Source of the DNA: Escherichia coli
GTDB lineage: Bacteria > Pseudomonadota > Gammaproteobacteria > Enterobacterales > Enterobacteriaceae
Assembly (NCBI RefSeq): GCF_003334335.1
Contig: NZ_QOWQ01000007.1
Direction: 5' to 3' (one strand)
DNA length: 64,000 nt
Shown here: one piece after another, positions 15,347 through 64,000 of the stretch
How the letters are laid out: every line of letters starts with the position of its first letter
Position numbering within the stretch: the stretch's first letter is position 1
Notes under the pieces: generated by a model
Seen by the model: the letters and a program-made list of their open reading frames with translations, nothing else
The model's database searches: none
Told to the model about the DNA's origin: nothing
Made by a program: the position numbers and the translations under genes

Positions 15347-15520
15347 AACAGTTTCCTCCAGAGTCATTGTATATGATGTGTAATGTTATATTGTAACATG
15401 TGACAAAATGCAATAACTCTTAGGAGATGAGAGCATAGTTTTCTCAGGTATACTTATCTATCTTATTGAAATAAAATGAATTATGTTGATAATTTGAGGT
15501 TGATGACAAACGAAACATAA

Positions 15521-15572
15521 CCTGATGTGATCTGCGTAGGCCGGATAGGGCGCTCGCGCCGCATCCGGCAGG
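15521..15572. repeat. REP (repetitive extragenic palindromic) element
   Basis: gtaggccggataagg...gcgccgcatccggc palindromic REP consensus between zinT and msrQ. Confidence 0.7.
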
Positions 15573-15602
15573 GATAACGCGTACTTTGTCGGCAATATGA
15601 AG

Positions 15603-16238
15603 TTATACAGATAATTTGTTGTGAACCTGCTTGCGTAACCGGTTAAAAAGGGAACGCAACTTCTTATACCGTAAGGCTAAAAGCAGTACAGCCAGCCCAG
15701 CGTAGATGAGCGGCTGCGGTGAAATAATCTTCACTGACCACAGATAATGTATTGGGGCCAGGATCGCGACAAGATAGACGAAATTATGCAACTGTTGCCA
15801 GTGCTTGCCGAGTTTTCGCTGCATCGCCTGGGTTGAAGTAAACGCTAAAGCAAGCAAAATAACCCAGCTGATAATACCTAACGTTAAATAAGGCCGGGTA
15901 ATTAACTCCTTACCTAATAACGCCAGATTATTCACGCCCAGCTCCAGCAATGCGTAACTGGTTAAATGCAGTGTCGCCCAGGCAAAGCTCCATAAGCCTA
16001 ACAGGCGGCGAGTGCGTATCAATAACGGCTGTTTTACGTAGCGTGCCAGAGGTGTGATTAACAAGGTCGCCAGCAAAAATTTCAGTGCAGTGCGACCGGT
16101 AAAATGCTGAATATCTTTCACCGGATCGGCACCCAGTCCACCGTGATTGATCGCCCAGACCAGCCAGAGAAACGGCAACAATCCGGCAAGATGCAGGCTA
16201 ACTTTCAGCCATGTCACCTGTTTTGCTGTCAGACGCAT
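15603..16238 (-). CDS. msrQ: methionine sulfoxide reductase haem-binding membrane subunit
   Basis: 211-aa multi-TM ORF immediately downstream of msrP, stop/start adjacent. Confidence 0.9.
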
Positions 16239-17249
<1,011 letters not shown>

Positions 17250-44347: not shown

Positions 44348-45016
44348 TCAAACCGGTTGAATTAACTCCGCTCCCTGGTTTTTGATATTACCCACCGCGC
44401 GCGATACCGGGTGCCAGGAGAACTGGTTTGCTGGCACACAGCCACTGGCCGCGATTTCTGAGGCTTCTTTACCGCCAATGTCTTGCCGCATCCATTCCCG
44501 CGCAGCTTCTGGCGACAGTACCAGTGGGCGGCGGTCATGAATGTCTACCAGACCCTGGTCTGCTGCAGCAGTGACAATTAAAAATCCTTCGGCTTCGTCA
44601 CCGCGCTCAAACGGTGTGCTACCTATCGCGGCCATAAAAACAGGTTGTCCATCAGCGCGATAGATAAAATAAGGCTGTTTTTTGTCGCCTTCTTTTTTCC
44701 ACTCAAACCAGCCATCGGCAAAACAGATTGCCCGACCATGTTGCCAGAGCGGTTTAAACATGCGACTGGTGGCCGCAGTTTCTACGCGGGCGTTAATCAG
44801 CGGCGGTTTATCCCACCATCCGGGAGCATATCCCCAGAAAACCGGATCCAGATGAAGGTGTTCATCACGTTCACTGAGCAGAAGAACTTTGGTTCCCGGC
44901 GCGACGTTGTATCTGCCAATGGGTTCGGGATCGTAGGGAATATCGCGTTCAATATCTTCCGCGAGAAGCGCAAGGTAATCTTCACGCGTTTGGGATTGGG
45001 CAAAGCGTCCACACAT
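44348..45016 (-). CDS. yedK: SOS-response-associated peptidase (abasic-site DNA-protein crosslink protein)
   Basis: 222-aa ORF beginning MCGRF (catalytic Cys2). Confidence 0.9.
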   Translation of the reverse strand: MCGRFAQSQTREDYLALLAEDIERDIPYDPEPIGRYNVAPGTKVLLLSERDEHLHLDPVFWGYAPGWWDKPPLINARVETAATSRMFKPLWQHGRAICFADGWFEWKKEGDKKQPYFIYRADGQPVFMAAIGSTPFERGDEAEGFLIVTAAADQGLVDIHDRRPLVLSPEAAREWMRQDIGGKEASEIAASGCVPANQFSWHPVSRAVGNIKNQGAELIQPV

Positions 45017-62866: not shown

Positions 62867-62951
<85 letters not shown>

Positions 62952-62996
62952 ACATCGGCCTCAAGCGGATGTCTGGCTGAAAGGCCTGAAGAATTT

Positions 62997-63070
62997 GGCG
63001 CGTTAACAAAGCGGTTATGTAGCGGATTGCAAATCCGTCTAGTCCGGTTCGACTCCGGAACGCGCCTCCA
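62997..63070 (+). tRNA. cysT: tRNA-Cys (GCA)
   Basis: GGCGCGTTAACAAAGCGGTTATGTAGCGGATTGCAAATCCGTCTAGTCCGGTTCGACTCCGGAACGCGCCTCCA. Confidence 0.95.
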
Positions 63071-63082
63071 CTTTCTTCCCGA

Positions 63083-63169
63083 GCCCGGATGGTGGAATCG
63101 GTAGACACAAGGGATTTAAAATCCCTCGGCGTTCGCGCTGTGCGGGTTCAAGTCCCGCTCCGGGTACCA
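63083..63169 (+). tRNA. leuZ: tRNA-Leu (UAA)
   Basis: GCCCGGATGGTGGAATCGGTAGACACAAGGGATTTAAAATCCCTCGGCG...GGGTACCA, 87 nt with long variable arm. Confidence 0.95.
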
Positions 63170-63237
63170 TGGGAAAGATAAGAATAAAATCAAAGCAATA
63201 AGCAGTGTCGTGAAACCACCTTCGGGTGGTTTTTTTG
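63170..63237 (+). ncRNA. 3' external transcribed spacer of the glyW-cysT-leuZ transcript (3'ETS-leuZ sRNA sponge) with terminator
   Basis: Segment between leuZ CCA end and the accacc-ttcg-ggtggt + TTTTTTT terminator (63215-63237); function by analogy with the described 3'ETS-leuZ. Confidence 0.5.
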
Positions 63238-64000
63238 TTCTTGTGTTTTTGTATGTGGCGGTAACGTGGCGATGGTATGGCGATATGTAGGAGCAAGAGT
63301 AAAGCAGGCTCAGTAGCAATTGCCTTTGCTGTCATAACTGCGCTTTTACTACTCTCGGTGTTATCCACAGTTTGTTGGTGTGGATTGCTTTCAATGATGC
63401 TGAAAAGAAAAGCCCGCAGTTTTTACGCTACGGGCTTTGTTTTTCTTTGTGACTTGCGTGTGAGGGTGCTACTTTCGGCCTTACCCTGGCAACCGATTGA
63501 CGGGGGATTGCTCCCCCGTCGCGGTTTCTTACGGTTTACACTGCAAGAACGCCGCAAATTCTGACCACATGATGTTAAGTCTGAACTCACACGGTGAACG
63601 GTGTATCATCCAGACGGTCAACAACATGGTTAAGCATAAAATGCTCACGATGATCGTTTTTTGCGGCATAGCGCTTGCTCCTTTTTCAAAGAGGCGCTAA
63701 CCTTCCACTTGTCACGGTTAGATGGTCAGGGCCTCGGGTTAAACAATATGTTTGACTCGGGGCCTTTCCACATCCGGCCTTCAGGTAATCCTTCCAGCCG
63801 TCAGCCGAAAGGCACCCGCGCGTAATGTACAGTTTTTGACTGGGAGGCGCAATCGCCCAGGGGGAGGCTGAGTTGATCCCTTCCCCGGTGGCATGATTTG
63901 AAAGCGTCTGCGGGGACGACTCCCATAAGCGCTAACTTAAGGGTTGTGGTATTACGCCTGATATGATTTAACGTGCCGATGAATTACTCTCACGATAACT

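Follow-up and report, generated by a model that had tools for sequence, protein, structure and literature searches.

A hok/sok locus at the leuZ end of a likely P2-like prophage in Escherichia coli, beside an ogr-like gene cut by IS186

The 740 bp that follow the leuZ terminator in this Escherichia coli contig appear empty, and very likely represent the right-hand terminus of a leuZ-integrated P2-like prophage, carrying a hok/sok locus next to an ogr-like gene that has been cut by IS186. The window, which is the whole 64,000-nt stretch of DNA analysed, breaks off within this insertion sequence, and the interval of interest spans positions 63238-63978. The interval is neither a leader nor an orphan spacer, and resolves into four ordinary parts: an att boundary with its adjoining arm, hok/sok, a truncated ogr and an IS186 end. 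All of these elements are already catalogued, and elements of the same kind are already annotated in public genomes.

An earlier interpretation, made from the letters and a list of open reading frames (the sequence-only reading), had found no long ORF in the interval and had left open a long 5′ leader, an sRNA locus or a remnant of strain-specific DNA. The lack of a long forward ORF was borne out by the ORF listing: the plus strand of 63238-63978 holds only ORFs of 26-95 aa, the longest being 63277..63564 (95 aa) and 63497..63700 (67 aa). An NCBIfam search with these two and with a minus-strand ORF of 55 aa gave no noteworthy match. A conserved protein-coding gene inside the interval had been named as evidence against that reading, and hok, encoded on the minus strand, is such a gene. 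Overlooked at that stage were this minus-strand 46-aa gene, the likely prophage nature of the whole interval and the IS186 terminal repeat at 63924; minus-strand genes shorter than 50 aa and IS ends at window edges are easily overlooked by eye.

The leuZ boundary, the ogr remnant and IS186

The genes for tRNA-Gly, tRNA-Cys and tRNA-Leu(UAA) lie at 62867-63169, downstream of pgsA. Alignment with E. coli K-12 MG1655 revealed that the window is identical to K-12 from leuZ through the terminator to 63238 and unrelated beyond this position, where K-12 runs on into yecA. Because homology to K-12 stops at 63238, all DNA after it is inserted, very likely prophage, DNA. The elements that frame the hok/sok locus are as follows.

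63115..63238, plus strand: att repeat, made up of leuZ from its anticodon loop to its 3′ end, the 3′ETS-leuZ spacer RNA region and the terminator
63239..63400, strand not applicable: prophage arm, flanked by the att repeat and the hok terminator and specific to leuZ-integrating phages
63801..63923, minus strand: codons 61-100 and the stop codon of an ogr/Delta-like late-gene activator gene, left as a 3′ remnant
63924..64000, plus strand: left end of IS186 (IS186/IS421 family, IS4 superfamily), with the terminal repeat CATAAGCGCTAACTTAAGGGTTG and the insL ATG at 63979

The att repeat forms the left boundary of the inserted DNA, just outside the 63238-63978 interval, and in the K-12 annotation 3′ETS-leuZ (b4759) directly follows leuZ. 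A megablast search of 5,426 complete E. coli genomes matched 63238-63924 in 8 of them, at 98.5% identity, and the first 172 bp of the inserted DNA were found in 10. The suggestion of a remnant of strain-specific DNA was therefore right in substance: homology to K-12 ends at 63238, and a P2-like prophage end occupies this site in 10 of the 5,426 genomes.

The genome of EC2 provides the full context. There, the order pgsA-glyW-cysT-leuZ is followed on the opposite strand by genes annotated as "Hok/Gef family protein", "ogr/Delta-like zinc finger protein" and "late control D", and these by genes for tail, baseplate, lysis, capsid, terminase, replication and integrase, beyond which lies yecA. The EC2 copy is a complete P2-like prophage of ~38 kb integrated in leuZ, with all the hallmarks of such a prophage present (ogr/Delta activator beside D, tail, capsid, replication, tyrosine integrase and att repeat). 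Both of its ends carry a repeat of ~124 bp that begins in the leuZ anticodon loop and takes in the terminator, with the far copy located between int and yecA; the phage therefore integrates in leuZ and regenerates the 3′ half of the tRNA. Since the att repeat includes the region of the 3′ETS-leuZ regulatory RNA, lysogens carry a second, displaced copy of that region. The part visible in the window consists only of the att repeat, the arm, hok/sok and the last 40 ogr codons before IS186 and the window end, and we infer the rest of the prophage in this genome from EC2. Other att sites show the same arrangement: the hok-ogr pair also ends P2-like prophages located downstream of serS and of ihfA, as well as phages Chuche and PhiR44_2.

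The ogr remnant is identical in 40 of 40 residues to the C-terminus of the 100-aa EC2 protein WP_032149160.1, of which residues 1-64, the zinc-finger part, match NCBIfam Ogr NF007241 (E 3.3e-14) and PHROG 603. IS186 splits the gene after codon 60. Window and EC2 diverge at 63924/63925, the IS186 junction being ambiguous by one base, and the remaining 76-77 nt of the window match the left end of K-12 IS186A without a difference, the insL ATG included. The sequence ATG AAT TAC TCT CAC GAT at 63979, noted earlier as a possible gene start, is thus a genuine one, namely the start codon of the IS186 transposase gene insL, as aligned with K-12 insL1; thousands of E. coli copies are annotated as IS4-like IS421-family transposase. 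The uninterrupted site in EC2 reads GGGGACGACTCCCC, and the upstream DNA there runs on into ogr without an IS.

IS186 prefers targets of the GGGG-N6/7-CCCC type. The IS186 insertion in ogr lies in a GGGG-N6-CCCC type site, and the three junctions compared share GGCGGGGA-N4-YCCC in their flanks. The terminal repeat and the insL start are identical to those of K-12 IS186A, IS186B and IS186C, whereas the target differs from those of the K-12 insertions in being a prophage ogr-like gene. The IS186/ogr junction occurs in none of the 5,426 complete E. coli genomes, and no gene record was found for the chimeric ORF at the junction.

The toxin gene, its antisense RNA and the mRNA fold

The hok/sok locus lies between the arm and the IS186 end, with its promoter reaching into the ogr remnant. 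Its elements, most of them predicted, are listed below.

63669..63529, minus strand: hok toxin gene, 46 aa, MPQKTIIVSILCLTMLLTVWMIHRSPCEFRLNIMWSEFAAFLQCKP, with the Shine-Dalgarno (SD) sequence AAGGAG at 63683-63678
63824..63852, minus strand: putative hok promoter, −35 TTGCGC (63852-63847), 17-nt spacer, −10 TACATT (63829-63824)
63401..63817, minus strand: predicted full-length hok mRNA, ~417 nt, from 63817 to ~63401
63803..63817, minus strand: 5′-terminal element (tac-like), GGGUGCCUUUCGGCU, with two mutually exclusive predicted pairing partners
63464..63480, minus strand: 3′ complementary element (fbi-like), GGCCGAAAGUAGCACCC, predicted to pair with the mRNA 5′ end
63498..63521, minus strand: conserved hairpin in the 3′-UTR of hok, cgggggattgctcccccg, −19.7 kcal/mol, z −5.0
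63401..63438, minus strand: hok intrinsic terminator, stem 63438-63409 followed by a U-run
~63713..63773, plus strand: predicted Sok antisense RNA, ~60 nt, complementary to hok mRNA from about +45 to +105
63675-63703, plus strand: putative sok promoter, −35 TTGCTC (63675-63680), 17-nt spacer, −10 TAACCT (63698-63703)

The 46-aa peptide matches Pfam PF01848 Hok/gef (E 2.3e-6) and PHROG 251 ("MokW-like host killing"; E 4.6e-19). Its scores against two NCBIfam models fall under the cut-offs, with 37.9 bits against a curated cut-off of 89 for HokA NF007290 (E 1.3e-9) and 27.3 bits against 73 for NF007279. Judged by its sequence, the peptide belongs to Hok but is not HokA. It is identical to RefSeq WP_001135720.1, annotated as "Hok/Gef family protein", in EC2 and MSB1_4I.

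A set of 18 homologs of the locus, with 74-98% DNA identity, was collected. They occur in P2-like phages and prophages whose att sites lie elsewhere (downstream of serS or ihfA), in Stx-converting phages, where the gene lies beside lom, and at other chromosomal sites. The 46-aa ORF is intact in 17 of the 18. The conserved Hok residues M1, C, T, C-E and E are present in the window peptide, which has all those listed in a recent survey of Hok proteins except the Leu before Cys-Glu (bioRxiv 10.1101/2025.08.07.668861). This Leu is replaced by Pro, and the resulting SPCE variant is common to an entire clade of Hok peptides. In R1 Hok, substitution of Ala for the same Leu did not abolish toxicity (bioRxiv 10.1101/2025.08.07.668861). 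The exact 46-aa window peptide is predicted to be toxic.

A consensus promoter scan gave nothing at threshold, and the promoters came instead from comparison of the homologs. The pattern TTGCnn-N17-TAnATT-N6-G is kept in 18 of 18, while the spacer and the upstream sequences are unrelated between genomic contexts. On this good comparative evidence, the conserved block would be the hok promoter, with +1 at 63817. It sits within the 3′ coding end of the ogr-like gene, whose stop codon follows the hok +1 by 14 nt.

Two checks proposed in the sequence-only reading, an Rfam search and a covariance analysis, were run, and both bear on the hok transcript. The Rfam search returned RF01794 on the minus strand at 63817..63659 with 47.9 bits (E 2.6e-9 in a 1.3-kb search), over the full model (1-157) and under the gathering score of 59. 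The start of this match at 63817 and the invariant G 6 nt past the −10 box set the 5′ end of the mRNA, and the terminator sets its 3′ end; both ends are predictions. Other Rfam matches, to Thr_leader (63403-63496 and 63334-63444) and to sroD (63153-63236), were dismissed as chance, lying far under their gathering scores and on terminator hairpins.

Two hairpins pointed out earlier proved real, and both belong to the predicted hok mRNA. The agcccg...cgggct hairpin with its T-run is the terminator-like site 63438..63409 on the minus strand, with a folding energy of −21.5 kcal/mol (z −5.1) on that strand and −19.4 kcal/mol (z −4.1) on the plus strand; as it is stable on both strands, the terminator is bidirectional. 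It is common to the P2-type homologs, and the Stx-phage homologs carry other terminators. The hairpin cgggggattgctcccccg is located at 63498-63521; across the 18 homologs, pairing is kept in 99.4% of its cells and compensatory changes affect 4 of its 9 pairs, which together with its stability makes it more than chance.

The minimum free energy fold of the full-length hok RNA has −174.4 kcal/mol (z −7.7), and in it a helix of 15 bp between the 5′ and 3′ ends (−24.9 kcal/mol) closes the molecule. The 5′ element can also pair with an internal leader segment at 63771-63759 (−21.8, or about −22, kcal/mol), and the two partners are found in nearly all homologs. RNAalifold, applied to the 18 homologs, favours this alternative internal 5′ hairpin and not the 5′-3′ helix. 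In the closed fold both the SD at 63683-63678 and the hok start codon are paired, with helices 7-9 paired at 79-99%.

The hok RNA fold covaries across the 18 homologs, including the hairpin cgggggattgctcccccg. When the closed fold was projected on the homologs, 87% of cells were paired, compared with 33-44% in slid controls, a percent-paired measure on which the structure is favoured by having been derived from the window's own sequence; 18 pairs had changed on both sides, and the covariation score exceeded those of all 500 shuffles. For the 5′-3′ helix, 94% of helix cells pair across the 18 homologs, compared with at most 51% in slid controls. Because the 5′ end is invariant, the changes in this helix are one-sided and none is compensatory, and the evidence for this modelled helix consists of its energy, its pairing conservation and the slid-partner controls. 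In several phage homologs, sequence homology ends right after the 3′ complementary block.

The idea of an sRNA locus held in part: an antisense RNA, Sok, does appear to be encoded here, as the antidote of a toxin gene and not as a free-standing sRNA. The candidate Sok aligns with annotated K-12 sokC over a common core, GGCCTCGGGTT...ACTCGGGGC, followed by a U-run. Its fold (−30 kcal/mol, z −5.8) has the shape of sokC, with an unpaired 5′ tail ahead of a long hairpin. All 18 homologs keep the sok promoter blocks unchanged (on the hok strand, AGGTTAGCGCCTC and CAAGCGC). We therefore predict an antisense Sok with its own promoter, 5′ tail and terminator hairpin opposite the hok leader.

A mok frame overlapping hok was looked for and not found in the window, where gaps of 59 and 19 nt separate the ends of the leader ORFs from the hok AUG. 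Across the 18 homologs no canonical mok frame is conserved; only some have a leader ORF that runs into hok, and its frame and length are variable. The authors of the Hok survey call Mok prediction unreliable (bioRxiv 10.1101/2025.08.07.668861). Of the features that define the R1 and K-12 loci, an overlapping mok is the only one missing here, and the coupling step of R1 is therefore not transferable to the window copy as it stands.

Relation to known systems and alternative readings

Like R1 hok/sok and K-12 hokA-E (for example hokC/mokC/sokC), the window locus encodes a small PF01848 membrane toxin. It resembles hokC/sokC in having a predicted antisense RNA opposite the leader, with the hairpin core of annotated sokC, and it resembles R1 and K-12 hok in its long structured mRNA, for which a 5′-3′ terminal helix, an alternative 5′ hairpin and an SD sequestered in the closed fold are all predicted. 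It differs from these loci in the length of the toxin (46 aa versus 50-52), in the Pro in place of Leu before Cys-Glu, and in scoring below the RF01794 and NCBIfam HokA cut-offs. In K-12, mokC overlaps hokC, whereas the window copy has no overlapping mok.

Cluster 82 of the Hok survey, with its sister cluster 72, corresponds to PHROG 251 (bioRxiv 10.1101/2025.08.07.668861). The cluster-82 homolog 82_1289, which is the EDL933 homolog, is 80% identical to the window peptide and of equal length, and shares with it SPCE and the end ...AAFLQCKP. It belongs to the 42 of 45 tested homologs reported as toxic; 72_1589 and 72_1621 of the sister group, which were also tested, are likewise not among the 3 non-toxic ones. 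A search of the supplementary text consulted, which may be truncated, did not recover the exact window peptide. The survey reports that hok is enriched in prophages, and the occurrence of cluster 82 relatives in prophages and phages is consistent with this. It contains no analysis of Sok, mok or mRNA structure, and the position by ogr and att in P2-like phages is unmentioned in it (bioRxiv 10.1101/2025.08.07.668861).

A functional precedent is offered by hokW-sokW of the Stx2 prophage Sp5, a type I toxin-antitoxin system whose Sok disappears on induction and whose Hok helps the phage to be released (PMC8621323). Like the window locus, it is a hok module in a temperate phage; unlike it, HokW has 51 aa and is encoded at a different locus in a lambdoid, not a P2-like, phage. 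The possibility that the window locus is the published hokW was rejected on the same length of 51 aa, and since in VT2-Sakai/Sp5 the window locus has its relative in another gene, of 46 aa, beside lom.

Could the hok/sok locus be a decayed, non-functional relic in a prophage crippled by IS186, its toxin neither made nor controlled? We consider this improbable. The absence of a mok frame overlapping hok in the window copy, the change from Leu to Pro at a position conserved in >80% of Hok peptides, the scores under the Rfam (47.9 versus 59 bits) and NCBIfam (37.9 versus 89) cut-offs and the disruption of the neighbouring ogr gene by IS186 all agree with decay. The chromosomal hok loci of K-12 have reportedly been inactivated by IS elements, and K-12 IS186A ends 19 bp from the hokC stop codon. 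Against this, all recognisable elements of the window locus are intact and conserved, including both promoters, the SD, the ORF, the terminator, the 5′-3′ pairing and the Sok hairpin. On the upstream side, IS186 stops 72 bp short of the hok −35 box and leaves the transcript untouched, and the hok/sok module is therefore intact. As for the substitution by Pro, the SPCE variant is clade-wide, its 80%-identical member 82_1289 was reported toxic in the survey, and R1 Hok tolerated Ala at the same position. We thus favour an intact hok/sok locus at the prophage end.

The arm at 63239-63400 is probably a recombination arm, and no feature is annotated in it in any of the 10 carrier genomes among the 5,426. 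It contains phased GTGGCG repeats at ~63256-63282, which look like protein-binding sites, and an inverted repeat, ATCCACA-N9-TGTGGAT, at 63363-63385. In comparison with the 77%-identical KY174/Bongo variant, the GTGGCG block is 91% conserved, versus 74% for the remaining arm. A weak candidate for a small hydrophobic ORF was also noted in the arm, on the plus strand from the ATG at 63277.

We strongly doubt that this ORF makes the arm, in addition, the gene of an unannotated small hydrophobic plus-strand protein (from the ATG at 63277, with ~45-57 conserved codons) converging on hok and using the same bidirectional terminator. The frame is open in both divergent versions of the arm, and its 29 changed codons comprise 12 synonymous and 17 non-synonymous changes, compared with 4-8 synonymous of 28-29 in the five other frames, with the non-synonymous changes preserving a hydrophobic core, GSVAIAFAVITALLLLSVLSTVCWCGLL. 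However, this comparison involves only two effectively independent sequences, and the counts by codon position (11/8/16) do not reach significance. The frame has a weak ribosome-binding site, a search for a promoter-like site found none, and the frame reads through the terminator and stops at a different point in each arm version. The ORF is annotated in no genome, no phage homolog or protein family was found for it, and among 5.8 billion proteins only the identical sequence was recovered. The best-conserved part of the arm is formed by the GTGGCG repeats, with their resemblance to protein-binding sites. We accordingly keep to the reading of the arm as a probable recombination arm.

Finally, the earlier proposal that the interval serves the gene starting at 63979 as a long 5′ leader or regulatory region, a role that its position immediately upstream on the same strand and its richness in structure might suit, has practically no chance of being correct, as that gene is the IS186 transposase gene insL with its own terminal repeat from 63924, the sequence from this point on is identical to K-12 IS186A at an unrelated locus, and the DNA upstream of the repeat, which is therefore unrelated to insL, continues in EC2 into ogr without an IS.

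Proposed mode of action and significance

For the hok/sok locus at the prophage end, we propose a mode of action modelled on the plasmid R1 paradigm. The conserved promoter would drive a hok mRNA of ~417 nt, the first 15 nt of which are predicted to pair with the 3′ end, so that the molecule would be closed, with the ribosome-binding site and start codon of the 46-aa Hok buried; in the alternative fold, the first 15 nt would instead pair with the internal leader segment. In analogy to R1, the closed full-length mRNA would be inert and long-lived, until slow trimming from the 3′ end removed the 3′ partner and allowed the 5′ end to refold. The refolded RNA would then either pair with the short-lived Sok and be degraded or, if Sok were exhausted, be translated. 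Loss of the prophage, or a stop in transcription caused by induction or by infection with another phage, would thus lead to production of Hok and death of the cell. By the same analogy, killing by Hok would stabilise the prophage, and may exclude other phages or assist lysis.

As to the Hok group as a whole, we raise a tentative possibility that is on balance not the expected outcome: the 46-aa prophage-end group (clusters 82 and 72) may control its toxin without mok, with Sok and refolding acting on the hok ribosome-binding site, and the arm (from 63277 onward, plus strand) might encode a second small membrane peptide converging on hok.

Beyond the correct annotation of the 740 bp after the leuZ terminator, the finding matters little. 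Two points may be of use to specialists: this Hok group is without a recognisable mok frame, and in P2-like phages its hok/sok consistently has ogr on one side and the attachment site on the other, independent of where the phage integrates.

Att repeat and 3'ETS-leuZ

The phage attachment site includes a small RNA of the host:
63170-63236, directly 3' of leuZ: region identical to the K-12 small regulatory RNA 3'ETS-leuZ (b4759)
This stretch falls within the att repeat of about 124 bp (63115-63238), which is duplicated upon integration of the P2-like phage. Lysogens such as EC2, an E. coli strain with a complete P2-like prophage in leuZ, therefore have a second, displaced leuZ 3' half and 3'ETS, adjoining int and yecA. 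In JNEC-KY174, which carries a variant arm 77% identical to that of the window, a single base separates the terminator copy beside hok from its K-12 counterpart, a difference that suggests a phage origin for this copy.

Repeats and a small ORF in the att arm

Beyond the att repeat, the arm holds two sets of repeats and a short reading frame:
63256-63282: phased direct repeats GTGGCG-N5-GTGGCG-N6-TGGCG, nearly invariant across both phage variants
63363-63385: inverted repeat ATCCACA-N9-TGTGGAT
63277-63410, plus strand (listed as 63277..63564): small hydrophobic ORF, beginning MAICRSKSKAGSVAIAFAVITALLLLSVLSTVCWCGLLSMMLKRK
The direct and inverted repeats are candidate att-arm binding sites for integrase or an excision factor. 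The ORF is also open in the 77%-identical variant, with synonymous changes exceeding those of every other frame. Its ribosome-binding site is weak, its frame continues through the terminator, and no homologs of it were found.

Neighbors and relatives of the hok locus

In the phage clade of the window, the Ogr-like protein comprises 100 aa, compared with 83-87 aa in other P2-type relatives. At 63801-63852 (minus strand), the C-terminal extension of this protein shares its DNA with the hok promoter and with the initial 14-17 nt of the hok mRNA. The regulator gene of phage Chuche stops earlier, leaving 45 nt before the hok +1. The IS186 of the window (63924-64000) lies inside ogr, with 107 bp between it and the downstream hok +1. 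In K-12 (15387-17010), 19 bp separate the end of IS186A from the stop codon of hokC. Both elements adjoin a hok locus, on the 3' side in K-12 but on the 5' side in the window, and the preference of IS186 for GC-rich targets may be enough to account for this repeated adjacency.

Between leuZ and ogr, the variant leuZ-integrated P2-like prophage of JNEC-KY174 (1660-2560) and Bongo has a tandem pair of hok/sok loci, one of the MSQK... group and the other of the MPQK... group, each with its own conserved promoter and 5' and 3' elements. A 46-aa hok locus of the window's family is also found in Stx-converting phages (L005, L007, L008 and L009), between lom and a hypothetical gene, for example:
VT2-Sakai (L007), 44539-44906: Stx-phage hok locus
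This 46-aa locus of Stx-converting phages lacks annotation in several records and is distinct from the published hokW, which encodes 51 aa. In Stx2_4151, the hok ORF is frameshifted, giving 44 aa.

A conserved AUG/GUG pair in the hok leader

The hok leader contains two overlapping potential start codons:
63773-63771 and 63771-63769, minus strand (hok mRNA +45 and +47): AUG/GUG pair after GAAGG, kept in nearly all 18 homologs
The region complementary to Sok has this pair at its 3' edge. Across the 18 homologs compared, the ORFs it opens range from 7 to 77 codons, with a shifting frame. Since the pair is located in the 5' hairpin, its conservation may be structural rather than coding.
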